Assembly (NCBI GenBank): GCA_020435295.1
Contig: JAGQZV010000001.1
Span: 1 to 50,810, forward strand
Length of the DNA: 50,810 nt
Source of the DNA: Bdellovibrionales bacterium
GTDB lineage: Bacteria; Bdellovibrionota; FAC87; UBA2466; JACKAF01
Reading direction: 5' to 3'
The stretch's first letter is position 1; the number at the start of each line of letters is the position of its first letter. The notes under the pieces are model-generated. The model worked only from the letters and a program-made list of their open reading frames with translations. It did no database searches and was not told where the DNA came from. Below, piece by piece: positions 9,898 through 50,810 of this stretch. The position numbers and the translations under genes are program-made.

Positions 9898-11424
9898 ATG
9901 ATGAATCCGAACGATAACAAATTGCGGGCACGCGAGGTTTTGGAGCGCGTGTTTGGTATTGATAGGCGGAGTTTGGCCGCACTACGAATTGGGGTGGGCA
10001 GTGCGGTGCTGGTAGACCTATTGACCAGAGCCCAAGATTTGGAAGCGCACTATACGGATTTTGGGGTGTTGCCCCGCTACGCGCTTTTGGACAAGTTTGC
10101 AAATCCCGCCCATCTGTCCTTGCACCTTGTGACGGGTTCTTGGGAAGGGCAGGCAACTCTGTTCCTTGTTAATGCGGTTATTGCGGTCGCGTTGGTTCTA
10201 GGTTACCGAACTCGCCTTGCTTCCGTCTTGACCTGGGTTTTTCTCGTTTCTTTGCAAAATCGTAACCCTGTAGTGCTAAATGCGGGGGATTTCGCGCTAC
10301 GGATGATTGCATTTTGGGGAATCTTTCTGCCTTGGGGCCGTTACTTTTCCTTAGATGCCGTAAGATTCGACCACCTACCGCCCGATCTAGCGCGCAAAGA
10401 GCTGTCACTGGCGACTGCAGCCTGCCTGCTCCAGGTCGGGATGATTTACGTCTTTACCGTGTTACTCAAAACCGGGGATGAATGGCGAGTGGACGGTACG
10501 GCCGTGTATTTTGCGATGTCACTTGACCAGTTCCAGTTACCGGCCGCCCGCTTTTTGCTTCAGTTCCCCACGCTCATGCGGTGGCTCACATTTGCGACCT
10601 TTTGGCTGGAGGCTCTGGTACCGCTCTCGCTATTTCTGCCTTGGGCCACTGGACGGTGGCGTGTGGTTGGCGTGCTCATGCTTTGGACGATGCACGCCAT
10701 GTTTTCACTGCACCTTCGAGTGGGCACTTTTTCGGTTGTTTGCATGGTGGCCCTCGTTGCCTTTGTACCGCCAGAGATGTGGGACTTTCTGGATCGGCGT
10801 CTTCCCCTATCGCGGGTGGCGAATGTCTGGAGCCGCTTGGCGGGACGCCTGCGCCTACGGCACGCTACAGAATTGCCTACCGCTCCCTGGTTAAGACGGT
10901 TCGATGGGACGGTTGTTCTTGCGGCGCTCATGTTTGTACTTTTCTGGAATGTGTCAACCTTGGATTCCAAACCGGTTCGTGTCCCAGCCTCCCTGGAAAC
11001 CGTAGCGCATACGCTTCGCCTCGATCAGAAGTGGGGGATGTTCGCACCTTTTCCCATCCGCGACGACGGTTGGTACGTGCTCCCGGGCCGCTTATTTAGC
11101 CATGCCTACACAGGCGCGGTGGTAGACATCTGGCGAAATGGGGCTCCGGTCGACTACCAAAAACCCAAGTGGGCTACGGATCTCTATCCCACATTTCGTT
11201 GGCGCAAATACATGCGACGCTTGTGGATGCTCGAGTACAAAGAACACCGCCTGTATTTTGGAAAGTACATTTGCCGCCATTGGAACCGCGAGCATGAGGG
11301 TGTGGACAAGCTAGAGAGCTTCGAGATCCTCTACATGAAAGAGAACACGCTGGATGATGGCGAGGCGCCACCGGTCCCCGTAAAGATCTGGTCTCATTGG
11401 TGCTACAAAAACTCGGTTAGTTAG
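9898..11424 (+). CDS. HTTM-domain (vitamin K-dependent gamma-carboxylase-like) integral membrane protein
   Basis: The N-terminal segment SLAALRIGVGSAVLVDLL... followed by multiple TM helices, and the C-terminal DQKWGMFAPFP...DGWY motif, are typical of HTTM family proteins. Confidence 0.7.
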   Translation: MMNPNDNKLRAREVLERVFGIDRRSLAALRIGVGSAVLVDLLTRAQDLEAHYTDFGVLPRYALLDKFANPAHLSLHLVTGSWEGQATLFLVNAVIAVALVLGYRTRLASVLTWVFLVSLQNRNPVVLNAGDFALRMIAFWGIFLPWGRYFSLDAVRFDHLPPDLARKELSLATAACLLQVGMIYVFTVLLKTGDEWRVDGTAVYFAMSLDQFQLPAARFLLQFPTLMRWLTFATFWLEALVPLSLFLPWATGRWRVVGVLMLWTMHAMFSLHLRVGTFSVVCMVALVAFVPPEMWDFLDRRLPLSRVANVWSRLAGRLRLRHATELPTAPWLRRFDGTVVLAALMFVLFWNVSTLDSKPVRVPASLETVAHTLRLDQKWGMFAPFPIRDDGWYVLPGRLFSHAYTGAVVDIWRNGAPVDYQKPKWATDLYPTFRWRKYMRRLWMLEYKEHRLYFGKYICRHWNREHEGVDKLESFEILYMKENTLDDGEAPPVPVKIWSHWCYKNSVS

Positions 11425-38597: not shown

Positions 38598-39536
38598 ATG
38601 GAAACCGCAGCGATTCACACAAGACATGTCAGACACCAGTACGGTAGGCGAGTTGCATTGGAAGATCTAACCCTTGAAATCTCTTCCGGGGCTGTCTTCG
38701 GTTTAATTGGTCCGAACGGCAGCGGGAAGAGTACAGCTTTCAAGGTTCTGTCGACCCAGATGCTTCCGACTTCCGGAGATTTGGAAATCCTCGGTTTTCC
38801 GATTTCTCAAGTCGGCGAGATACGTAAGCGAATTGGGGTTGTATTCCAATCACCGGCTTTGGACAAGAAGTTGGGAGTGGCGGAAAACCTGAGGATTCAA
38901 GGTTGGCTTTACGGGCTTTGCGGAAAAGAGCTCGACAACCGTATCGTAACCGTGCTCGAGCAATTAGGGGTTCTGGATCGGAGCCGCGATAGCGTCGAAT
39001 CGCTCTCTGGAGGATTACAGCGGCGAGTGGAAATCGCCAAGGCTTTGCTGCACAAGCCTCGTCTGTTGATTTTGGATGAGCCGACTACTGGCCTGGATGC
39101 CCACATTCGACGCGATCTTCTCAACTATTTTCAAAAACTGCGTAGTACTGAAGGGATGACTATTCTTTTTACGACCCACTACTTGGAGGAGGCCGAAGCG
39201 TGTGATCGAGTCGCGCTATTGGAGAGGGGGAAACTTGTGGCGTACGATTCTCCCAGAAACCTTACCGCAAGTATGGAGCAAGAAATTCTTACTATCGTGG
39301 CAGTGGGAGCCGCGGAATTGAAACAAGAGATCGAAAAGGAATCGGGTCTGCATGTGCATGTTGTCGGCGAAGAACTGCGCGCGGAGGGGCGCGAAGCGCA
39401 CAAGCGAGTCGCGTGGATAATGGAGCGATGGGGGGATCGCATCGACTCGTTGCGCGTCGGCAAACCCACTCTTGAAGACTATTTCATCAAACAGACGGGA
39501 CAACGTTACGAAGGGAGGGAGGAGGCACATGCTTAG
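38598..39536 (+). CDS. ABC transporter ATP-binding protein (ABC-2 exporter type)
   Basis: Walker A GPNGSGKST, signature LSGGLQRRVEIAKAL and Walker B LILDEPTTGLD. Confidence 0.9.
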   Translation: METAAIHTRHVRHQYGRRVALEDLTLEISSGAVFGLIGPNGSGKSTAFKVLSTQMLPTSGDLEILGFPISQVGEIRKRIGVVFQSPALDKKLGVAENLRIQGWLYGLCGKELDNRIVTVLEQLGVLDRSRDSVESLSGGLQRRVEIAKALLHKPRLLILDEPTTGLDAHIRRDLLNYFQKLRSTEGMTILFTTHYLEEAEACDRVALLERGKLVAYDSPRNLTASMEQEILTIVAVGAAELKQEIEKESGLHVHVVGEELRAEGREAHKRVAWIMERWGDRIDSLRVGKPTLEDYFIKQTGQRYEGREEAHA

Positions 39537-40311
39537 TCGGGCATACCTGTTGTCGGTTTGGGGGTTGGTGTATCGGGAAATAGTCCGTTTTTTTCGACAG
39601 ATGAGCCGTGTGATTGGCGCGCTGGGAACGCCGCTGCTATTTTGGTTCCTGATCGGATCGGGTGTCGGCACTTCGTTTCAGTCGCCCTTCGTTCCTGCGG
39701 GGATGAGCTATTTGGAATTCTTGTTTCCAGGAACTTTAACTTTAATACTCTTAATGACAGCGATGTTTTCCTCGATCTCCATTATTCAGGACAGGCAGGA
39801 GGGATTTTTGCAGTCGATCTTGGTGGCACCCGTGGCATCGGCAACGTTGGTAGGCGGCAAACTTCTGGGAGGCAGTTTGCTCAGTGTTTTCCAGGCAATG
39901 CTGCTCCTGCTATTGGTTCCTTTCATAGGTATCCAGTACAGTGTGGCTCTGTGGATCTATTCTGCTTTTGGACTCTTCCTGTTCTCGATAGCGATGAGTT
40001 CAATATCTTTCTTTTTTGCCTGGAAAATCCCTTCTGTGCAGGGCTTTCATGCTGTTATGAACCTGCTGTTTCTTCCACTTTGGGTTTTGTCCGGAGCCTT
40101 GTTTCCTGCTTCGGCGGCCCCCGGTTGGCTGAAAGCCTGCATGTATCTGAATCCCGTGACGTACGGCGTGGCGAGTATCCGCTACGCGCTGAACCCTTCC
40201 CAACTGGAGACTTTTGGCGCCCCGTCGGTTGCGATAAGCTGGGTGGTTTTGGGGGGGCTTGCCGCTCTCGGCTACTTCGTGGATGTTTGGGTGGTTAAGC
40301 CAAGGAGGTAG
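39529..40311 (+). CDS. ABC-2 type exporter permease
   Basis: Six-TM protein. ATG 39529 is preceded by GGAGGAGG and overlaps the ATPase stop codon. Confidence 0.8.
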   Translation: MLSRAYLLSVWGLVYREIVRFFRQMSRVIGALGTPLLFWFLIGSGVGTSFQSPFVPAGMSYLEFLFPGTLTLILLMTAMFSSISIIQDRQEGFLQSILVAPVASATLVGGKLLGGSLLSVFQAMLLLLLVPFIGIQYSVALWIYSAFGLFLFSIAMSSISFFFAWKIPSVQGFHAVMNLLFLPLWVLSGALFPASAAPGWLKACMYLNPVTYGVASIRYALNPSQLETFGAPSVAISWVVLGGLAALGYFVDVWVVKPRR

Positions 40312-40314
40312 AAA

Positions 40315-40920
40315 GTGAAAACCCGAAAGTTCTCGTGGTTCTTGACCGCTCTGGTTGCGATGCCAGTTCTGGCAGTGGCGCTCTTTGCCGTTACGTCGGG
40401 TTGGTCGGTTGCTAAACCACTCCGCCACGTTCCCGACTTTAGCCTGGTCGATACTGAGGGAAGGGAAGTCCGAAATACAGACCTGCTCGGTAAGGTGTGG
40501 GTAGCAAGTTTTATTTTTACGCGCTGTGAGGGTGCTTGTCCGCTTTTGAACAAGAAAACCCAAAAGCTCCAAGAATTCTTTGGCAAAGATCCTCATTTTA
40601 GAACGGTGTCCATTTCAGTCGACCCCGAGGCCGATAGTCCGTCTGCGTTAAAGCGCTATGCCGCGCGTTATCGAAAGGATTCTGAGCGCTGGATTTTTTT
40701 GACTGGGGAAAGAGCTTCGATCAAGGATCTATTGCAATCAGGTTTTCAGGTCGTGATGCCGGGCATGGAAGATTCTGAAACGGGCATGATCACGCACAGC
40801 AATAGTTTTGTTGTTGTGGATCGCGAAGGCGCAATCCGCGGGCATTTCGACATGGATGATGAGGACTCCATGCTCAAGATCAAACGCAGCGTGCACAAGT
40901 ACTTAGGAAGACGGTTCTAG
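40315..40920 (+). CDS. SCO1/SenC copper chaperone (thioredoxin fold)
   Basis: N-terminal TM anchor, CEGACP (CxxxC) copper site in FIFTRCEGACPLL, and a conserved downstream His (ITHSNSF). Confidence 0.85.
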   Translation: MKTRKFSWFLTALVAMPVLAVALFAVTSGWSVAKPLRHVPDFSLVDTEGREVRNTDLLGKVWVASFIFTRCEGACPLLNKKTQKLQEFFGKDPHFRTVSISVDPEADSPSALKRYAARYRKDSERWIFLTGERASIKDLLQSGFQVVMPGMEDSETGMITHSNSFVVVDREGAIRGHFDMDDEDSMLKIKRSVHKYLGRRF

Positions 40921-40921
40921 A

Positions 40922-42064
40922 GTGCAACCCTATGATCTTATTTTCGTCGGGGGCGGTTTGGCGAACGGCCTTGCCGCTTTTCGCCTCAAGCAGGATCACC
41001 CAAAACTCAAAATCTTAGTAATAGAGAAAGACTCGATGTTGGGGGGGAAGCATACTTGGTCGTTTCACGATAGCGATCTCTCCTTACAGTCCCTGTTATG
41101 GGCCACGCCGCTAATAACGAGACACTGGGATGAGTATGAGGTGCGCTTCCCGGAGTACCGGAGAGTATTGCGTTCTGGATACAATTCCGTTCGCTCGGAG
41201 CAGTTTCACGAAGTGATAGCCCCGTTTTTGGGAGAGAGCCTCCTATTAAATACAGAAGTCCTGGGAGTAGAGTCGGACCGAGTGCATCTTGAGGGGAGAA
41301 GCTTCCGCGCACACTTGGTGCTGGATGGTCGTGGTTGGGAATCGAACCCGCAAGTGAAGCTAGCCTACCAAAAATTCTTGGGACAGTTGCTGCGCTTGAA
41401 AAAGCCGCATGGACTGAGTCGCCCGCTGTTGATGGATGCGACGTGCGCCCAGGAAGACGGTTTTAGGTTTTTTTATGTCCTGCCGTGGTCTGAGACGGAA
41501 CTCTTTGTTGAGGATACCCGCTACAGTGACGGATCCGAGGTGGATGCCGAGACGTATCGAGAGCACATTTCTGGGTATTGTCGACGTTTTGGGTACGACG
41601 TGGAAGCCGCAGTTTATGAGGAGATTGGAAGTTTGCCCATTCCGCTGGGCGGTGAGTTGCCGCGGTGGAGTGCTGGCGTTGTAAAAACTGGAATGCGCGC
41701 GGGGCTTTTTCATGCAACAACGGGGTACTCGTTTCCGGAAGCTGTCGCCTTTGCGGAAACCTTGGCAAGCTTGCCGACACCTGCTAGTGCGCAGAACATC
41801 GAGTTATTGTGGCGACGTGCACAAGCGCATTGGGTCGGGGGAACTTTTTTTCGTTTGCTAAACCGCATGTTATTTAGAGCCGCTGTTCCCGAGGACCGCT
41901 ACAGAGTTCTTCAACGCTTCTACCGACTGTCACCCGCGCTAATTCAGCGCTTTTATAGGGGACAGATGTGGCGTTCGGACTGCCTTCGGCTCCTTATCGG
42001 GAAACCTCCGGTGCCGGTGTTAGACGCTATCAAGTGTTTGCGAGCAGGGAGCCAGGTGGCGTGA
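40922..42064 (+). CDS. crtY: lycopene beta-cyclase
   Basis: N-terminus MQPYDLIFVGGGLANGLAAFRL is a near-match to the proteobacterial CrtY FAD-binding N-terminus. Length and context within the crt operon fit. Confidence 0.85.
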   Translation: MQPYDLIFVGGGLANGLAAFRLKQDHPKLKILVIEKDSMLGGKHTWSFHDSDLSLQSLLWATPLITRHWDEYEVRFPEYRRVLRSGYNSVRSEQFHEVIAPFLGESLLLNTEVLGVESDRVHLEGRSFRAHLVLDGRGWESNPQVKLAYQKFLGQLLRLKKPHGLSRPLLMDATCAQEDGFRFFYVLPWSETELFVEDTRYSDGSEVDAETYREHISGYCRRFGYDVEAAVYEEIGSLPIPLGGELPRWSAGVVKTGMRAGLFHATTGYSFPEAVAFAETLASLPTPASAQNIELLWRRAQAHWVGGTFFRLLNRMLFRAAVPEDRYRVLQRFYRLSPALIQRFYRGQMWRSDCLRLLIGKPPVPVLDAIKCLRAGSQVA

Positions 42065-43041
42065 ATACCACTGAGAAAAATTCTCCGGAACTTTTTTTTG
42101 GTGGGGACGTCAGCGATCTTCTGGAGAACGTATTGTCCCAACACGTGCGGAGCCTGATGGATCGCCCGAGCAAACGCATCCGGGCTCAGCTTGTTGAATT
42201 GGGCTTCCAGTTTTCGGGTACTACTCCTGCGCGGGAACTTTGCCAAGCTTGCGAACTGGTCGTCGAGGCGGTGCACGCTGGGTCGTTGGCGATTGATGAC
42301 ATCCAAGATGGCAGCCTCATGCGTCGCGGACAGCCGACGCTACACCGATCTCTTGGCGTGCCGCTTGCGATTAACACCGGGAACTGGTTGTATTTCCGTC
42401 CACTGGAGCAAGTGCGCGAAATGGGCCTTAGTGCCGAGCGCGAACTACGAATGTATCGTGCGTACCACCACGCCTTATTGCAAGCTCACTATGGTCAGGC
42501 GCTCGATGTTGGTGTGCCTATTGATGGTATCGCGCAACCAAGGGTGTACGAGGTTTGCCTAAGTTCCCTGGAACTAAAGAGCGGGATGCTGACCTCGTTG
42601 GCGCTCGTTCTGGGCGCTATAGCGGGTGGCGCCGCAGAGGATTTGGTCCGAGATTTGGAGCGATTTGGGTGCGCTTTTGGGATCGCACTCCAGATGTTCG
42701 ATGATCTGGGCAATTTGAGTGGTAAGAAAGAGCCCGAAAAAAAATGGGAAGACCTAAAACTGCGCAGGCCGACCTGGTTTTGGGCTTGGCTGTCGCGCCA
42801 TACTAGTGAAGAAGAGTATCTGGGTTTTGTGTCATGCGTTCGCTCGCTTCCCGATGAGGCACCTTTGCGCACATGGATGGAAGTGCATCCGGAGTATTTC
42901 GAAGGTGCTATCCGGGATGCCCATAAACATCTGGACCTTTGCCTTGATGAACTTGAGGTGCAGCTGTCTTGCGCTGCGGAACGACTGGCCTTTGCGCACC
43001 TAAAGGATTTAGGGGGGAAGTTGCGTGTTGCCTACCAGTAG
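42061..43041 (+). CDS. crtE: polyprenyl (geranylgeranyl) diphosphate synthase
   Basis: First Asp-rich motif AIDDIQD and second FDDLGN. The GTG start overlaps the crtY stop (GTGA). The product chain length is inferred from context. Confidence 0.78.
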   Translation: MNTTEKNSPELFFGGDVSDLLENVLSQHVRSLMDRPSKRIRAQLVELGFQFSGTTPARELCQACELVVEAVHAGSLAIDDIQDGSLMRRGQPTLHRSLGVPLAINTGNWLYFRPLEQVREMGLSAERELRMYRAYHHALLQAHYGQALDVGVPIDGIAQPRVYEVCLSSLELKSGMLTSLALVLGAIAGGAAEDLVRDLERFGCAFGIALQMFDDLGNLSGKKEPEKKWEDLKLRRPTWFWAWLSRHTSEEEYLGFVSCVRSLPDEAPLRTWMEVHPEYFEGAIRDAHKHLDLCLDELEVQLSCAAERLAFAHLKDLGGKLRVAYQ

Positions 43042-44554
43042 ACTGAAAGCGGCGGTCATAGGTTCCGGTTTTGGCGGCCTTGCTGCCGCCATTCGGCTGC
43101 AGGCGCGTGGAATAGACACGACGATTCTCGAAAAGCGGGACAAAGCCGGGGGACGTGCTTATGTTTTTGAGGATTCCGGCTTTCATTTTGATGCCGGCCC
43201 AACCGTAATTACAGCTCCTGAGTGCATTGATGAGCTGTTTTCTTTGTGTAACAGAAAGCGACAAGACTACGTCGAGCTGTTACCGGTAACTCCCTTCTAC
43301 CGGCTCTGCTGGGAGAATGGAGATGTATTTGACTATGTGAACGATGAAGCTCAGTTGCTCGAGCAAATTAGGCGCTTCAATCCTTCCGACGTGGGCGGTT
43401 ACCAGAAGTTTTTCAAATATTCTGAGGCCGTCTTTGAGGCGGGCTACAAGGAACTTGTACACGTTCCGTTTTTGAGCTTTTGGGACATGATACGGGCAGC
43501 TCCCGACCTAATCAAACTCAAGGCCTATCGATCAGTGTACAAGACCGTGGCGTCGTACATCCAAAATGAGAAACTGCGCCAGGCCTTTAGTTTCCATTCA
43601 CTTCTGATTGGAGGAAACCCGTTCTCGGCGTCCGCCATATACACTCTTATACACGCCCTCGAACGCAAAGGAGGTGTTTACTTTGCTAAGGGAGGCACAC
43701 ACACGTTGGTTAGAGCGTTGTTGGCGTTGTTTGAAGAAATGGGTGGGCGGGTATTGCTCAATTCAGAGGTGAAAGAGATTGTTACAGAGCAGTCGAAGGT
43801 GTGTGGCGTTCGAACAGTTAATGGAGAGTTTTCTCCCTATGACTTAGTTGTGTCTAACGCGGATGTTACCCACACGTACACAGAGCTGCTCCGTTCCACA
43901 AGTGAGGTGAAGGCAGTAGCCCGCGGTCTGCTCGGGAAGCGCTACAGCCAGGCTCTCTTTGTCGTCTATTTTGGCACCGATCGCGTTTACCCAAGCGTCG
44001 CCCACCACAGCATTCTCTTCTGCAACCGCTACAAGAGCCTCTTAGAAGATATCTTTTCGAGGGGCGCGCTACCCGAGGAAAACTCCTTTTATCTACATGC
44101 TCCTTGTCGCACCGATTCTTCCTTGGCTCCGGAAGGCTGCGATGCCTTTTATGTGTTAGCCAACGTCCCGAACCTTGCCAAGGCCCCACTCGACTGGAGC
44201 GTTGTAGGTCCCCGCTATGCCGAGTGGATTCTAGACTATTTGAGCCGGAGTTATTTGCCCGAAGTCAAAAGGCACATAGTTACCCAACGATTTTTTTCTC
44301 CGTTGCAGTTCAAGACCGAACTGAATGCGCACCTGGGCACTGCCTTTTCCTTGGAGCCGACGCTTTTACAGAGTGCGTATTTCCGGGTCCATAATAGGGA
44401 GTCGCGTCTTAAGGGCCTGTACTTCGTAGGTGCAGGAACCCACCCGGGAGCTGGTGTTCCAGGGGTCATCAACTCCGCTAAGGCCACCGTTGGGGTTATT
44501 TTGAGTGAGTTGCGAGATATTCCAGAGTATAGATTGGAACCGGCCTATGCCTAA
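43025..44554 (+). CDS. crtI: phytoene desaturase
   Basis: N-terminal dinucleotide fold AAVIGSGFGGLAAAIRL and the C-terminal GLYFVGAGTHPGAGVPGV motif, typical of CrtI. Confidence 0.92.
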   Translation: MLPTSRLKAAVIGSGFGGLAAAIRLQARGIDTTILEKRDKAGGRAYVFEDSGFHFDAGPTVITAPECIDELFSLCNRKRQDYVELLPVTPFYRLCWENGDVFDYVNDEAQLLEQIRRFNPSDVGGYQKFFKYSEAVFEAGYKELVHVPFLSFWDMIRAAPDLIKLKAYRSVYKTVASYIQNEKLRQAFSFHSLLIGGNPFSASAIYTLIHALERKGGVYFAKGGTHTLVRALLALFEEMGGRVLLNSEVKEIVTEQSKVCGVRTVNGEFSPYDLVVSNADVTHTYTELLRSTSEVKAVARGLLGKRYSQALFVVYFGTDRVYPSVAHHSILFCNRYKSLLEDIFSRGALPEENSFYLHAPCRTDSSLAPEGCDAFYVLANVPNLAKAPLDWSVVGPRYAEWILDYLSRSYLPEVKRHIVTQRFFSPLQFKTELNAHLGTAFSLEPTLLQSAYFRVHNRESRLKGLYFVGAGTHPGAGVPGVINSAKATVGVILSELRDIPEYRLEPAYA

Positions 44555-45518
44555 GAAACATCAAACGGAATACGAACTTTTGGTCGAGCGGTGCCGTTCG
44601 GTAATCAAGGTGGGATCAAAGAGCTTTTCCCTTTCCGCGCATCTTTTTGGCAAAGAAAAACGGGACGGTGCTTTCTTGCTATATGGTTGGTGCCGCTATT
44701 GCGATGATGAAATTGACAAAGCTAGCGCCAGCGAAACGTCGGAACAACTCCAGCGCCGCCTGGCGACGCTTCGTGAGCTTACTGAGGCTAGCTATTCGTC
44801 TTCGCCGATGAGCCACCCGGTGTTCGCAGCTTTTCAACATGTCGTGCACAAGTATGGCATTCCAAGGCATTATCCCTTCGAGCTGTTGGAGGGGATGGCG
44901 ATGGATATTCGCCAGGAGAAGTATCCCGACTTAGATACAGTGGTCTTGTACGCCTACCGCGTGGCCGGCTGTGTTGGATTGATGATGGCCCACGTGATGG
45001 GGGTGAGTAGCGACAAAGCGCTCCGACACGCGTCCGATATGGGTATCGCCATGCAACTGACCAACATCGCGCGAGATGTCTACGAGGATGCGTCGATGGG
45101 GCGGGTGTATCTGCCCGAAGTGTGGTTGCGCGAAGAGGGGATTGCTCGCGATGCGATCCGCGAAGCTTGCAACACGCCAAAGTTGGTGCGGGTCGTATCG
45201 CGCTTATTGGATGTCGCCGATGGTTACTATGCCTCAGGGGATGCGGGCTTGAAGTATTTGTCTCTTAGAAGTGCGTGCACCGTTGCTAGTGCGCGCTACG
45301 TGTACGCGGAAATCGGCAACCGCGTGCGGATGCGGGGAATCCACGCGTGGAGTACCCGAACCTGGGTTAGCCTGCCTCGAAAACTTTTGGTGATGTGTAT
45401 TGGTGTGATGAAGGTGTTTCTTACTAGGCCGTTTGGCAAAGGGTGGACTGCGCATCGTATTGGCATGGTCTGGGAGCATGCAGGCATCCTATTCGGCTAT
45501 TTGTTTTTCGGGAGTTAA
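44547..45518 (+). CDS. crtB: phytoene synthase
   Basis: Squalene/phytoene synthase motifs YGWCRYCDDEID and NIARDVYEDASMGRVYLP. ATG 44547 overlaps the crtI stop. Confidence 0.92.
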   Translation: MPKKHQTEYELLVERCRSVIKVGSKSFSLSAHLFGKEKRDGAFLLYGWCRYCDDEIDKASASETSEQLQRRLATLRELTEASYSSSPMSHPVFAAFQHVVHKYGIPRHYPFELLEGMAMDIRQEKYPDLDTVVLYAYRVAGCVGLMMAHVMGVSSDKALRHASDMGIAMQLTNIARDVYEDASMGRVYLPEVWLREEGIARDAIREACNTPKLVRVVSRLLDVADGYYASGDAGLKYLSLRSACTVASARYVYAEIGNRVRMRGIHAWSTRTWVSLPRKLLVMCIGVMKVFLTRPFGKGWTAHRIGMVWEHAGILFGYLFFGS

Positions 45519-46256: not shown

Positions 46257-47057
46257 TTAAAAGGTAAATCCGAGGTCAAGCGCAAGCGTGGGGCGGAACC
46301 CATCGAATTCGATTACGACGATGTTGCTGGAAATGGCCGAAATGAACGTAGCACCCGCGCCGATCCCAATGTTGAAGCCTGACTTGAATCGCAAGCGCCA
46401 ACCCAAGGTCGCAATTCCGCCAAATGCAGTGGAGTTTTCCGAACCTAATCCCGTCACCGCGACGGTATAGAAACCGGGGCCGATCTGAACCCACAATCCT
46501 TTGTAGTTCTTCTTGCTGTAATAGTTGAAGGTGAGATGTCCGCCAAAAGAGGTAAGTGACGTCGTGGTAGCTGTCAGGCGGAAAAAGTGCGGACGAAGTC
46601 CGAGGGCTATCGATGGGGAAAGCGCAAACTGGATATCCAGCATCGGGAAAAAGAGGCTGAAGCCTGCATTGAAGCCTCCCGTTATATCAAATTTGTCGCC
46701 GCGGCCTTCGCGGCTATCGTGTGCTGAGCTGTAACTGGAGCCTCGTGTTGTTGCTGGTTCGCGTTGATCGGTCTTTGCTTTGGAGCTAGCCGGAAGCACT
46801 TTGTCTCCCTTTTGAACCGCGAATTTTGGGACCTGCGTAAATGCCACTACGGCCCGGCTTGAGTTGGATTGGACTACTTTGCCGCATGCGATTTTCCGCT
46901 TCTTTCTCACGGCACAAGCTTGATCTCCCGTTTGCCACTGGACTCCTTTAGCTTGTTGGATCACCATTCCCTTTCGATTTGCTTTCAGCACTCGCGTGGC
47001 TTCTGCGCGTACGCAAACGACAAGCAGTAGCAAAAGAATGTAGTGGCTTGTTTTCAA
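46257..47057 (-). CDS. outer-membrane beta-barrel protein with a small N-terminal domain
   Basis: TTG start, signal peptide ...VCVRAEA, a C-terminal ~150 aa of alternating beta-strands, and a terminal aromatic signature ...LDLGFTF. Confidence 0.6.
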   Translation of the reverse strand: MKTSHYILLLLLVVCVRAEATRVLKANRKGMVIQQAKGVQWQTGDQACAVRKKRKIACGKVVQSNSSRAVVAFTQVPKFAVQKGDKVLPASSKAKTDQREPATTRGSSYSSAHDSREGRGDKFDITGGFNAGFSLFFPMLDIQFALSPSIALGLRPHFFRLTATTTSLTSFGGHLTFNYYSKKNYKGLWVQIGPGFYTVAVTGLGSENSTAFGGIATLGWRLRFKSGFNIGIGAGATFISAISSNIVVIEFDGFRPTLALDLGFTF

Positions 47058-47106: not shown

Positions 47107-47334
47107 TTAGTCATCGCTTTGGTTCCACTCGCTCGACAGCAACTTTCGACCTTTTGGTGAACCCAGGGCGAGTGGCCAAAGAAGACTAGCGCCAATGCCC
47201 CGCAGAAGATAACTCCACGGTCGGTCTCGAAAAGGTTGAGGAATTTTTTTTTCCTGAAAGTTAGCGACTACTTTGAAAGCCAGTTTGGCGGCATAAAGTA
47301 GGTAAACTAGATAGGCGAGGCGCAAGAGATTCAC
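47107..47334 (-). CDS. possible small two-TM membrane protein (75 aa)
   Basis: GTG-initiated ORF filling the gap between the cyclase-like gene and the OMP gene. Two hydrophobic segments. No other support. Confidence 0.35.
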   Translation of the reverse strand: MNLLRLAYLVYLLYAAKLAFKVVANFQEKKIPQPFRDRPWSYLLRGIGASLLWPLALGSPKGRKLLSSEWNQSDD

Positions 47335-47371: not shown

Positions 47372-48544
47372 TCAGGCGGTTTGCTGTCGCTTGCCGGCGA
47401 GGGAGGCCAGGCGGCGTTTAAGTTCCTTTGAGGCTAGCGTGTAGCCGCCATTTCCCCCGTCCACGAGATGAAAGTGCTTTCCCTTCGCTTTGTTGAATAT
47501 CATGCACGTTAGCAGGACGTGGTCCGACCGGTGTGTGCCGTATGCGAGGTCTCCTTGCTGATAGTACTTTTCGAGCAGCTCCGTTATGCTATTAGCCTCT
47601 TCGGGGCGAACATCCAGTACCATCCGTAGGCACCCGTCGAATTTTCGAAAATCGGACTGTCCGATCACCTCGCGCACATATTTTTTTCCGGAGAGAGAGG
47701 GGATCCAAAATCGGGAAGCCCAGGCGGCGAAAAAAAAGTGAAACCACTGGTATGTCAGCCGGAAAAAAACGGAAGCGCCAAACGTTCGGATTCGACTTTC
47801 GGCAAAAAACGAGCTAATCCGAGAAGCCAACTTCAAGTTCTCAGCTTGAACCGGATTTGCGTTTCCCCCAACCAGAGTTTGAATGGTATTGGCTACCGAA
47901 CGGTACACTTGCTGGGCACGGTGCTGGGGGTGAGGGCAGTTTGCTAGGATCGTTAGCGACACCCCCTTAGAGGCTTTCAAAGGGTTCCAACGGCATTCCA
48001 GTCCCATGTAACTCGCCGGAGGATCCGGATTCGCGGGATCGTTTATCGAATAATTGGGTCCTCGCTCGGGCGATTTTATCCAGGCTTCTGCCACGGCAAT
48101 TCCGGATCCGCAGAACATGGATTGGGTTTGCGCCGAAGAAAGAGACAGATCGGCTAGCCCCACCGAATACCCTTCTTCGTACAGATCGCGAACTGGGACC
48201 TTACCTACAGCGAGCTCGAGCTGAAATGCCTTACGTGCCATCGTTCTTGTCAGCGCCAGTACGTGCGCAGCCTTGTCGATAGTATCCGGGGAGGCCAAGA
48301 AAGTGACGCCGTCGCCGCCAAATACAAACGGAATTGGGCCGACAGCATTCAGAACGGCCATGACACAAGCTCCGGCGACCGAGTTGACTTCTTTATAGCG
48401 GCCGGCTTCGATGGCCATTGTCGAGTTGCGGATGTCAACAATCACTAAGAACCAATTAGAGGCGACCGGACTGTAAAGATCTATCCGAAGTGCTTCTTCG
48501 AAAGTTTCAAACCGGGGTGCGGGCGTGAACTCGATTGGCTTCAT
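47372..48544 (-). CDS. DUF3095-like protein with an N-terminal class III nucleotidyl-cyclase-like fold
   Basis: WFLVIVDIRNSTMAIEAGRYKEVN and PFVFGGDGVTFL sit where cyclase metal-binding Asp motifs occur. GLECRWNP, DFRKFDGCLRMVLD and HFHLVDGGNGGY match my recollection of the DUF3095 family. The Shine-Dalgarno GAGGAAAG overlaps the upstream stop. Confidence 0.6.
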   Translation of the reverse strand: MKPIEFTPAPRFETFEEALRIDLYSPVASNWFLVIVDIRNSTMAIEAGRYKEVNSVAGACVMAVLNAVGPIPFVFGGDGVTFLASPDTIDKAAHVLALTRTMARKAFQLELAVGKVPVRDLYEEGYSVGLADLSLSSAQTQSMFCGSGIAVAEAWIKSPERGPNYSINDPANPDPPASYMGLECRWNPLKASKGVSLTILANCPHPQHRAQQVYRSVANTIQTLVGGNANPVQAENLKLASRISSFFAESRIRTFGASVFFRLTYQWFHFFFAAWASRFWIPSLSGKKYVREVIGQSDFRKFDGCLRMVLDVRPEEANSITELLEKYYQQGDLAYGTHRSDHVLLTCMIFNKAKGKHFHLVDGGNGGYTLASKELKRRLASLAGKRQQTA

Positions 48545-48552
48545 GACTTTCC

Positions 48553-49482
48553 TCAGGCGGCAAGCTTAAAGCCGATCCCACTGGCGCCGACTCGCAATAT
48601 TTGTAGGAGCGTTTCGTCGGACTGTCCTTCTGGGAGTAGCCACTCATTTAACCTATGTGCTTCCAAACCTGCAGGCGAGCGGTCATAGCCACCGGCTCTT
48701 ACGGCTGCATTAGCCGGCCCGGTGATAATTGCAAACGAATGGAGACTGGACTTTCCTTCCTTCCAGACGTCAAATAAACAGGGGACAGGTTCCCAGTTCG
48801 CCTTTCCAATTTCAAATCCTTGGATACCAGTTTTCACAGCTTCAAAGAAGGCTTTGACCGGAAGTAAGCCGTGTGTTTCCCCGAACAGGGGCCTCCATAG
48901 GCTTTCCTTTCCACTGTGACCGCGGATACGCTCAAAATAGTCTGGCTGCAGACTTTCGAGTCTGGCCTTGTACATACTGTAAGCCTTCTTGTCGAAGTCT
49001 GCTGATTGCCCAGCGGGCCGGCAGTGAAAGCGGGAGGGGCGAAGGGTGCGTTGTCCCGACTCCATACAAAGAAGCGGTCCGAAGTAGAACGGGTATAGTC
49101 TAAAGTCATACGGTCGTAACTCTTTTGACCCTCTTTGCCCCAATTTCCAACGGAGTTTTTTGACTTTGGACTCTGCGCGGGATTTTTCAAGTGTGGCAGT
49201 CTTTGAGGGCTTTTTTTTGAGTCTTGATTCAGCGTCTTTGAGACGTTTTTCTTGCATCTTGAGTTCCTCCCGCTCCGCTGCAGACGTGAGGCGTTCGTAT
49301 TCTTTGATGAGCTTCAGGAACTTATTGTCTGTCAGAAAATTGTGTTCTAGGGCTCTAGGTATTTTTATTTTCGGATTCTTGAGTCTAGCCGAGAAAAGCT
49401 CAGCAAAAGCCTCTGAGTTAACTTTGGCGCTCCATTCTGCGGCCAGTTGCTCGAGATCGGTTTCTACAACTAGATAACGCAC
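48553..49482 (-). CDS. SRAP (YedK/HMCES)-like protein lacking the Cys2 nucleophile, with a coiled-coil insertion
   Basis: SFAIITGPANAAV...GYDRSP...NEWL, HGLLPVKAFFE and YKARLESL align with the SRAP motifs FAIITTxAN...IHDRMP...WL, CLVPADGFYEW and INARxET. The GTG start has an AGGAG Shine-Dalgarno 8 nt upstream and gives M-R-Y-L-V instead of M-C-G-R-F. Confidence 0.55.
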   Translation of the reverse strand: MRYLVVETDLEQLAAEWSAKVNSEAFAELFSARLKNPKIKIPRALEHNFLTDNKFLKLIKEYERLTSAAEREELKMQEKRLKDAESRLKKKPSKTATLEKSRAESKVKKLRWKLGQRGSKELRPYDFRLYPFYFGPLLCMESGQRTLRPSRFHCRPAGQSADFDKKAYSMYKARLESLQPDYFERIRGHSGKESLWRPLFGETHGLLPVKAFFEAVKTGIQGFEIGKANWEPVPCLFDVWKEGKSSLHSFAIITGPANAAVRAGGYDRSPAGLEAHRLNEWLLPEGQSDETLLQILRVGASGIGFKLAA

Positions 49483-49494
49483 GTTCGGTGCTCC

Positions 49495-50313
49495 TCACTT
49501 GGGTTTGCGCTTTGTTCGCGTGCGCGACGCACGTCGTAGGCGTGCGTTCCCGCCAAGACTGGCTTGGAGAGCTTCCATCAGATCGATGACCTTCTTTTCC
49601 GGCGCTTGCTCTATTCGAGTAATATCCTGTCCAGCGATTTTTTTGCGGATTTGCTTGAGCAACCGTTCGCGGACTTCGTCTTTGTACTTGGCCGGCTGGA
49701 AGCTTTTTACTTCTGCGCTTTTGATTACTTTTACCGCTAGCTCCAGCTCCTTTGGGGTTACTGCAGCGTTTCCAATTGGAACATCTTTAAATGATCTTCG
49801 TTCGTGCTGGTAGAAGAGGTCTTCCATTATCAAACCTTTGCTTTCTGGGCGGATGGCGACCAAGTATTGCTTGCCTCTGGCCTTGTAGCGCGCGATGGCG
49901 ACTTTGTGGGTCTTGTTAAGGGCCGCGCTGAGTAAGCGGTAGGCTTTGTCACCGCCTTTGTCTGGGCCGAGGAAGTAAACTTTGTTGAGATAGAGTCGGG
50001 TTACGCTGTCAGCGGGTACAAATTCCACGATCTCTATGGTCTGGTTGGCTTTGGCTTCTAGGACTCTAAGCTCGTCCGGAGTGAAGACTACGTACTCGTC
50101 TTTTTCAAACTGGTAGCCCTTAACTTTGTCGTCCTTGGTAAGGGTTTTGCTATGTTGCGGGCAAAAGTATTGCTGCTTGAGCCGGTGCCCGCATCCCTTA
50201 TGTAGCCAGTTGAACGAGATCTTTTCGCCAGCCTCGCCCGCGGGGTAGATATTCACGGGCACTGTTACCAGGCCGAAGGAGAGTCTTGCTGTCGCAATAG
50301 ATCGGATCGCCAT
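49495..50313 (-). CDS. ku: Ku protein (bacterial non-homologous end joining)
   Basis: N-terminus RLSFGLVTVPVNIYPA...ISFNWLHKGCGHRLKQQYFC, a central Ku core, and a basic C-terminal tail RLRRASRTRTKRKPK, typical of bacterial Ku. Confidence 0.9.
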   Translation of the reverse strand: MAIRSIATARLSFGLVTVPVNIYPAGEAGEKISFNWLHKGCGHRLKQQYFCPQHSKTLTKDDKVKGYQFEKDEYVVFTPDELRVLEAKANQTIEIVEFVPADSVTRLYLNKVYFLGPDKGGDKAYRLLSAALNKTHKVAIARYKARGKQYLVAIRPESKGLIMEDLFYQHERRSFKDVPIGNAAVTPKELELAVKVIKSAEVKSFQPAKYKDEVRERLLKQIRKKIAGQDITRIEQAPEKKVIDLMEALQASLGGNARLRRASRTRTKRKPK

Positions 50314-50352
50314 GCAGCCTTATCGGTGCCTGACGCACGGGGTCTTAGACCC

Positions 50353-50810
50353 CTACACCGCAGTGGTTAAATGCCTGATATTACTTGAGGAATCCGTGTG
50401 TTTGGCATGGACTGCTTGCTGGTGCCAGTGGAGCAGGCCGATGCCTGCCTCAGATTCCGGAACCATTCGCGCTTGGCTTAGATTGGAAAACTCTCGCACC
50501 CACGCGGCGATGGTTGCTTGCTCATCTGGGCGATTGGCATCATCCAGTATGATGAGTGCGGAGGGAGAAAGTTTTTCTCCGAGAATCGGAAGGGCCGGAA
50601 AGCGGCTTAGTGCTTGAAGGTGTCCTGGAGGGCCATCGATAAACAACAGATCGATGGACTCCTTAATGGAATTAGGATCGATGTCGTACCACTTCCATAA
50701 TTTTCCGGACAGTTCGACGTCCGTTAGTGGTGCGTAGCGAAGTTCCACATTGTCTAGAGCAAAGCGCTGAATGCGTTCCCGCGTGACTTCGGCAAATTCG
50801 GGATCGTGTT
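50353..50810 (-). CDS. class I SAM-dependent methyltransferase-like protein (Methyltransf_24-like), 5' part outside the window
   Basis: The frame stays open to the window end (…HDPEFAEVTRERIQRFALDNVELRY…). DLLFIDGPPG ... LSPSALIILDDANRPDE is typical of this family. The GTG at 50748 in the ORF track is probably internal. Confidence 0.65.
   Translation of the reverse strand, partial: HDPEFAEVTRERIQRFALDNVELRYAPLTDVELSGKLWKWYDIDPNSIKESIDLLFIDGPPGHLQALSRFPALPILGEKLSPSALIILDDANRPDEQATIAAWVREFSNLSQARMVPESEAGIGLLHWHQQAVHAKHTDSSSNIRHLTTAV

Follow-up and report, generated by a model that had tools for sequence, protein, structure and literature searches.

Does a Ku gene that is followed within a few nucleotides by an SRAP-like gene and a DUF3095 gene, with no LigD in view, belong to a new kind of DNA-damage sensor, or is it one side of an ordinary nonhomologous end-joining (NHEJ) locus seen at the edge of an assembly? 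The question is raised by contig JAGQZV010000001.1 of a Bdellovibrionales bacterium, a complete 50.8-kb contig from a metagenome-assembled genome (MAG), which was analyzed whole and is referred to here as the window. A preliminary description had suggested that the three genes could be a module in which two proteins that bind DNA ends or lesions act on a nucleotide cyclase in place of classical NHEJ. We consider it likely that the locus is instead conventional NHEJ in split form, seen from its Ku side, with LigD past the contig end and two extra genes in the ku operon. The physical layout had been described accurately, as coordinates and sequence both confirm: three minus-strand open reading frames (ORFs) stand in a row (Table 1), with 12 nt between ku and the SRAP-like gene and 8 nt between the latter and the DUF3095 gene. 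Each downstream gene has a Shine-Dalgarno site placed on the preceding stop. A GGAG 8 nt ahead of the GTG at 49482 overlaps the ku stop, and a GAGG 6 nt ahead of the ATG at 48544 overlaps the stop codon of the SRAP-like gene.

The first gene encodes a canonical bacterial Ku, as had been recognized. Its product matches PF02735 at 6e-47 and the equivalog TIGR02772 with an E value of 8.6e-78 and 261.4 bits, against a cutoff of 150 bits, over amino acids 4–253 of 272, which makes it a member of the bacterial Ku family. Two relatives, both represented by MAG contigs, were used for comparison: GCA_020635235.1 (Bdellovibrionaceae/Pseudobdellovibrio; hereafter L001) and GCA_041391485.1 (Bdellovibrionota; L002). 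The window Ku is 83–89% identical to theirs, with nonsynonymous differences (pN) of 0.066–0.092 versus synonymous differences (pS) of ~ 0.8.

The preliminary description had also pointed to the lack of LigD. No LigD-like sequence was found by tblastn in the 50.8-kb window (best E value 0.64), and in this sense the absence stands. It is uninformative, however, because the window is the complete contig and breaks off within a Methyltransf_24 gene, only 497 nt upstream of ku. Between 38.6 and 50.3 kb, 13 genes of the window stand in the order that they have in L001 and L002 (71–90% amino acid identity), and in both relatives the gene order continues as LigD (divergent), Epimerase_2, a glycosyltransferase-like gene, Methyltransf_24, and ku. 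The LigD start lies 3389 bp upstream of the ku start in L001 and 3400 bp upstream in L002. The L001 LigD has LigD_N, ligase, and Prim-Pol domains, and the gene as called in L002 has the ligase and Prim-Pol domains only. Since LigD is found 3.4 kb upstream of ku in both relatives and our contig ends after 0.5 kb, its apparent loss is very probably a contig-end artifact. By analogy with both collinear relatives, LigD should almost certainly be sited ~ 3.4 kb upstream of ku, or ~ 2.9 kb past the contig end. A LigD just beyond the window, which the synteny makes very probable, speaks against the non-classical locus that had been proposed.

The arrangement has two features of two-component NHEJ: its Ku is canonical, and a LigD of several domains (ligase and Prim-Pol, with or without LigD_N) lies 3.4 kb upstream of ku in each syntenic relative. 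It differs in that ku and ligD of the relatives are not adjacent but divergently transcribed, with three sugar- and methyl-transfer genes between them, and in that two extra genes stand behind ku and LigD is not visible on this contig. If our explanation holds, the two lineage-specific genes are passengers of ordinary NHEJ, and the locus is chiefly of cautionary value: a gene "missing" at a contig end, combined with tight gene spacing, is no evidence for a new system.

The second protein has the SRAP fold and lacks catalytic residues of the family, a prediction that Pfam, Foldseek, and alignments all uphold. It matches PF02586 at 5e-11 (43 bits versus a 27.1-bit cutoff), over profile positions 27–195 only. 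An AlphaFold2 (AF2) model built on 26 relatives has a pLDDT of 91.9, and its 19 best PDB matches in Foldseek are all YedK, HMCES, or BT_1218 (E values 1e-9 to 3e-5, probability 1.00). By its fold and by a profile score above the gathering score, the protein belongs to the SRAP superfamily.

A thiazolidine cross-link from Cys2 to abasic sites defines YedK and HMCES, and Asn75, Glu105, and His160 are the catalytic residues of YedK. The N-terminus of the window protein reads M-R-Y, with Arg2 (codon 49477–49479) in place of Cys2, while Lys172 (48967–48969) replaces the catalytic Asn and Tyr266 (48685–48687) the catalytic His. Glu214, Arg174, Thr254, and Arg268 are still in place, the Arg and Thr being aligned with residues through which SRAP cross-linkers bind single-stranded DNA. 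Because an in-frame ku stop lies 4 codons upstream of the GTG, the N-terminus cannot be longer, and the L002 orthologue has the identical GTG start and GGAG spacing. Residue conservation was counted among 256 relatives: most keep Cys2 (218 of 226), Asn (240 of 254), and His (212 of 233), with the Glu, the Thr, and the two Arg also conserved. All three catalytic residues are absent only in the window protein, P0122, P0242, P0243, and P0281. The window protein is therefore not a cross-linker of the YedK/HMCES type: having lost the nucleophile Cys2 along with the catalytic Asn and His and kept only the Glu, it is predicted to be incapable of forming a thiazolidine cross-link to abasic sites. It has the fold of these enzymes (Foldseek probability 1.00, target-normalized TM 0.5–0.6) and the aligned Glu, Thr, and two Arg, and it differs from them, apart from the three replacements, by a 64-residue helical hairpin (residues 53–116) and a further 13-residue insert. 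The hairpin is inserted after the N-terminal strand. It is common to an "MCYSA" SRAP subfamily of ~ 300 amino acids (e.g., P0125–P0140), which occurs in Burkholderia, Hydrogenophaga, Oligoflexia, and many metagenomes, and it is absent from relatives of ~ 225 amino acids.

An exhaustive HMMER search of 1.84 billion representatives was used to find further members of this catalytically dead clade. It adds P0242 (MHY..., YKAK, GYHR; L174 2979–3905) and P0243 (MKY...; L175 and L176 611–1540), both 40–42% identical to the window protein, and P0281 too. P0242 and P0243 have His2 or Lys2, Lys for Asn, and Tyr for His; on their short contigs they adjoin an FKBP gene or stand alone, and they lie beside neither Ku nor DUF3095. 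Because the clade reaches down to 40–42% identity with the same Lys and Tyr replacements, this loss goes far back and the proteins have since been maintained. In the comparison of the window with L002, the SRAP-like gene has a pN of 0.18 and a pS of 0.83, at which synonymous sites are saturated. This pN is close to that of DUF3095 (0.17, pS 0.83), and that of Ku is lower (0.07). These rates show purifying selection, and the protein is a pseudo-enzyme, not the product of a decaying gene.

That the SRAP-like gene is nonetheless a functionless remnant near loss, and the arrangement mere gene-order history, is possible and in our judgment unlikely. Its three catalytic residues are gone, and no gene of the syntenic block is less conserved than it and DUF3095 (71% versus 73–90%). 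In L001, ku is followed directly by DUF3095 across a 46-nt spacer (9955–10000), which encodes a 9-codon relic, GVAFKAAA-stop, homologous to the 3' end of the SRAP-like gene as it reads in the window (GIGFKLAA) and in L002 (GIAFKVAA); the L001 lineage thus once had this gene and lost it by a clean deletion. Against decay, ORFs of 309 amino acids are intact in two genomes despite the saturation of synonymous sites, the start codon and Shine-Dalgarno spacing are conserved, the AF2 model is confident, and the spread of the dead clade implies long-term maintenance. If active at all, the protein would most likely be a dispensable, non-covalent binder of single-stranded DNA (ssDNA) or junctions alongside Ku, in keeping with the association of SRAP and Ku already on record. 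A dead SRAP clade kept under purifying selection is new, and as a natural separation-of-function variant it could help to show which roles SRAP proteins have apart from cross-linking.

A connection between SRAP genes and repair genes, which the preliminary description had brought up, is indeed documented by comparative genomics. Operons of SRAP (DUF159) and Ku together with an ATP-dependent ligase were described in 2013 by Aravind, Anand and Iyer (PMC3765255). No cyclase-like partner is mentioned there, and the window differs from those operons in its dead SRAP (Arg for Cys2, Lys for Asn, Tyr for His). An SRAP-family gene directly beside ku is the feature that they share, and we re-found examples of it. 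The long-insert SRAP subfamily was inspected at 80 metagenomic loci: SRAP, Ku, and LigD occur together at one of them (L093), and a ligase is nearby in L108 and L109, whose matches are identical and which are probably one locus. In Hydrogenophaga sp. UC242_50 (L086 5049–6924), 25 bp separate Ku from a long-insert SRAP whose catalytic residues are intact. DUF3095 was found beside a long-insert SRAP in none of the 80 loci and not in the Hydrogenophaga genome. The SRAP-Ku link is known and sporadic. As a separate observation, the Hydrogenophaga region contains Zeta-toxin, SNase, DUF2188, and SET-domain genes and is mobile element-like.

Upstream of ku we identified TAAG-N17-CCGATA, a candidate promoter of the FliA/sigma-28 type. 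It is the sole match in the window, where 0.11 would be expected, and also the sole match in L001 (9093–9119) and in L002 (9135–9161), each time 7 nt before ku. The motif was kept across the relatives while the rest of the spacer diverged. It is a close match to TTAAG-N16-CCGATA, the consensus of FliA (sigma-28)-dependent attack-phase promoters mapped in B. bacteriovorus (PMC3627812). Judging from the motif, ku would head a small transcription unit of its own, nearly leaderless and probably driven by this promoter, and its expression would fall in the attack phase, in which cells do not replicate. Such timing fits the established view of bacterial NHEJ as a pathway for non-replicating cells; in Bdellovibrio, promoters of this type mark attack-phase genes, and end joining is then the only double-strand-break repair available. 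This conserved attack-phase motif on ku is a new observation. A perfect palindrome, GGGGTC-TAA-GACCCC (window 50334–50348, minus strand), was also noted just past the Methyltransf_24 stop, where it overlaps the −35-like TAAG; it is unconserved in L001 and L002.

A scan for sigma-70 promoters from 46.9 to 50.8 kb found none. The scanned region has 3 terminator-like sites, versus 5.6 expected from shuffles, and the three genes have none between them. The cluster runs on into two further conserved co-directional genes, and being transcribed together would not make its members partners in function.

The third protein had been called cyclase-like and DUF3095-related, and at the level of the fold this proved correct. 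It matches PF11294 at 4e-95 (319 bits) over profile positions 6–378 of 378 and has all 37 columns that are invariant across a 28-sequence family alignment, and is thus a DUF3095 protein. Its AF2 model has a pLDDT of 93 and a pTM of 0.90. The best whole-length Foldseek match in the PDB is human soluble adenylyl cyclase (sAC, ADCY10), at an E value of 5e-6 and a probability of 1.00; the whole-length root-mean-square deviation (rmsd) is ~ 12 Å, meaning that the domains are arranged differently. Single class III cyclase domains (Cya2, CyaC, Rv1900c, bPAC, and the C1 domain of mammalian adenylyl cyclase) align over 134–160 columns at an rmsd of 3.4–4.4 Å, and the probability is 0.99–1.00 for all of these and for sAC. 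Weaker matches are to the palm domains of Cas10/Csm1. The protein has the cyclase-homology (palm) fold of the class III nucleotidyl cyclases.

In the model, Asp37 and Asp78 are candidate metal-binding residues that fit the expected positions: in class III cyclases, the two metal-binding aspartates sit at places that would correspond to Asp37 and the Asp of GGDG. Further invariants lie in the C-terminal half (Asp298, Lys301, Asp303, Arg307, His359, Asp362, GGY, and Lys376). No PF00211 or GGDEF match was obtained at E values up to 10, either with the whole protein or with N and C halves of five members, and the protein has no sequence match in the PDB; the cyclase relationship is therefore one of fold. 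ADCY10 has two tandem catalytic domains and gives the best whole-length match, and the Asp on the first strand and the GGDG hairpin of DUF3095 may be further points of likeness to class III cyclases. DUF3095 differs from them in the missing sequence matches, in a helical insert (243–295), and in the dissimilarity of its halves, which are not significantly related (hhalign, E value 0.13). The core appears to be class III-cyclase-like and apparently intact, and may be enzymatically competent. No paper of the literature searched mentions DUF3095, and the fold assignment for this unstudied family is new: it can be described as a class III-cyclase fold resembling soluble adenylyl cyclase.

The preliminary description had called for a neighborhood analysis of the three genes, and the triad turned out not to be widely conserved. 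It is confined to one small Bdellovibrionota clade of three closely related MAGs and is non-intact in two of them. L001 has lost the SRAP-like gene, as described above. L002 has all three genes, the last two overlapping by ATGA, with an in-frame TGA in DUF3095 at 11152–11154 (codon 76), in place of the first Gly of FGGDG; the rest of this ORF is intact, at 71% identity. DUF3095 was then followed through one genome per GTDB species, which yielded at least 582 loci, and the best 80 were examined, flanks of 8 kb being requested to either side. None of these 80 has Ku, LigD, or an SRAP-like gene within 8 kb by tblastn. Clustering of up to four flanking ORFs per side gave no recurrent partner beyond a cyanobacterial synteny with MurJ. 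The 122 immediate neighbors, with 141 Pfam families, are not enriched in repair genes, MutL occurring twice, both times in Kiloniella. The adjacency of DUF3095 and Ku in three MAGs is the count expected from chance adjacency to repair genes, and nothing ties DUF3095 functionally to DNA ends. As part of a split NHEJ locus, the position of DUF3095 behind ku would be a lineage-specific feature of gene order, and the gene may share the expression timing of ku.

These results bear directly on the proposal that Ku and the dead SRAP read DNA ends or lesions and control a DUF3095 cyclase, as a LigD-independent sensor of damage or foreign DNA with a nucleotide second messenger. The close spacing with Shine-Dalgarno sites on stop codons, the presence of the triad in the ancestor of three MAGs with purifying selection on all three genes, the family invariants and cyclase fold of DUF3095, including Asp37 and GGDG as candidate metal ligands, and the residues of the SRAP-like protein that align with Arg, Thr, and Glu conserved in active SRAPs are all compatible with it. 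Yet the comparative evidence does not support it, and we consider it improbable. LigD is 3.4 kb from ku in both relatives, the 80 other DUF3095 genes have none of the proposed partners, and the dead-SRAP members P0242 and P0243 have neither Ku nor DUF3095 beside them. One relative has dispensed with the SRAP-like gene and the other has a nonsense codon in the cyclase motif. The co-directional cluster also runs on into an unrelated gene for an outer-membrane-protein-like product. There is no effector gene, and PADLOC gave no defense-system match, its hits to the three proteins being at noise level (E values of at least 0.0035). The same holds for a likeness to Cas10 of type III CRISPR or to CBASS (cyclic oligonucleotide-based antiphage signaling systems): the Cas10/Csm1 palm is among the weaker structural matches of DUF3095, but no effector, CARF, SAVED, or Cas gene is nearby, and the locus stands in housekeeping synteny beside carotenoid and cytochrome-oxidase assembly genes.

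A version tied to the predatory life cycle is quite improbable as well. In it, Ku and the dead SRAP would read DNA ends or abasic ssDNA in the attack phase and modulate a DUF3095 nucleotide signal, which would tie chromosome integrity to the decision between prey entry and replication. That DUF3095 takes a direct part in end joining, modifying DNA ends as a palm-domain nucleotidyltransferase instead of working as a cyclase, is very improbable: its palm-type fold is common to Cas10 and Thg1-like enzymes and it adjoins ku here, ruvCAB in L170, and mutL in Kiloniella, but its neighbors show no repair enrichment across the 80 species, its best structural matches are cyclases, and LigD of the relatives already has a Prim-Pol domain.

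Several observations nevertheless weigh against reading the locus as the Ku side of a split NHEJ system. LigD itself was not seen in this genome, the contig ending first, and the candidate promoter has a spacer of N17 versus the published N16. Tight coupling and purifying selection extend to all three genes, and the triad was evidently complete in the common ancestor of the three MAGs, which leaves room for a lineage-specific functional link among them. Since several further genes of L002 are split, the TGA in its DUF3095 gene may be an assembly error rather than a true nonsense mutation. Outside the clade, the nearest DUF3095 (P0002, 42% identical; L170 2134–5479) is preceded at a distance of 40 bp by ruvC-ruvA-ruvB and has a Tag glycosylase 3 kb downstream, and in Kiloniella the DUF3095 copies come after mutL (L038 5915–9131). 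The ruvCAB and mutL neighbors hint weakly at repeated repair contexts; the next-nearest DUF3095 outside the clade has no repair context.

Table 1. Features of the ku region and their positions in the 50.8-kb window
Feature	Position	Strand	Remarks
Methyltransf_24 gene, 3' part	50353..50810	minus	cut by contig end; Pfam and synteny with relatives
TAAG-N17-CCGATA, candidate FliA/sigma-28-type promoter	50321..50347	minus	27 nt, ends 7 nt before ku ATG
ku, bacterial NHEJ Ku	49495..50313	minus	272 aa, basic C-terminal tail
SRAP-fold protein gene	48553..49482	minus	309 aa, GTG start
Helical hairpin insert, residues 53–116 of SRAP-like protein	49135..49326	minus	AF2 helices H53–90, H94–116
DUF3095 gene	47372..48544	minus	390 aa
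Asp37 of DUF3095, candidate metal ligand	48434–48436	minus	family-invariant, on strand 32–39 (first strand)
GGDG motif 76–79 (Asp78) of DUF3095, candidate metal-binding	48308–48319	minus	invariant FGGDG hairpin between strands 73–75 and 79–84
Small ORF	47107..47334	minus	75 aa; co-directional, 37 nt past DUF3095 stop
266-aa protein gene	46257..47057	minus	co-directional; last one ahead of convergent gene

Neither of the two genes that continue the co-directional cluster has a Pfam match. The C-terminal 51 amino acids of the small ORF are 75–76% identical in L001 and L002. The 266-aa protein is 86–90% identical in the two relatives and has a signal-peptide-like N-terminus and a C-terminal ...GFTF, by which it looks like an outer-membrane beta-barrel protein. 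At the other junction, a read-through fusion of Ku and the SRAP-like protein was considered and rejected: the two genes are in the same frame in the window, with a TGA and 4 codons between them, but the L002 spacer is 13 nt and the frame is unconserved. On the plus strand, positions 38598–45518 carry genes for an ABC transporter, SCO1/SenC, lycopene cyclase, polyprenyl synthase, a phytoene desaturase-like protein, and phytoene synthase, named by synteny with the annotated L001 contig, and this carotenoid cluster adjoins the NHEJ genes.

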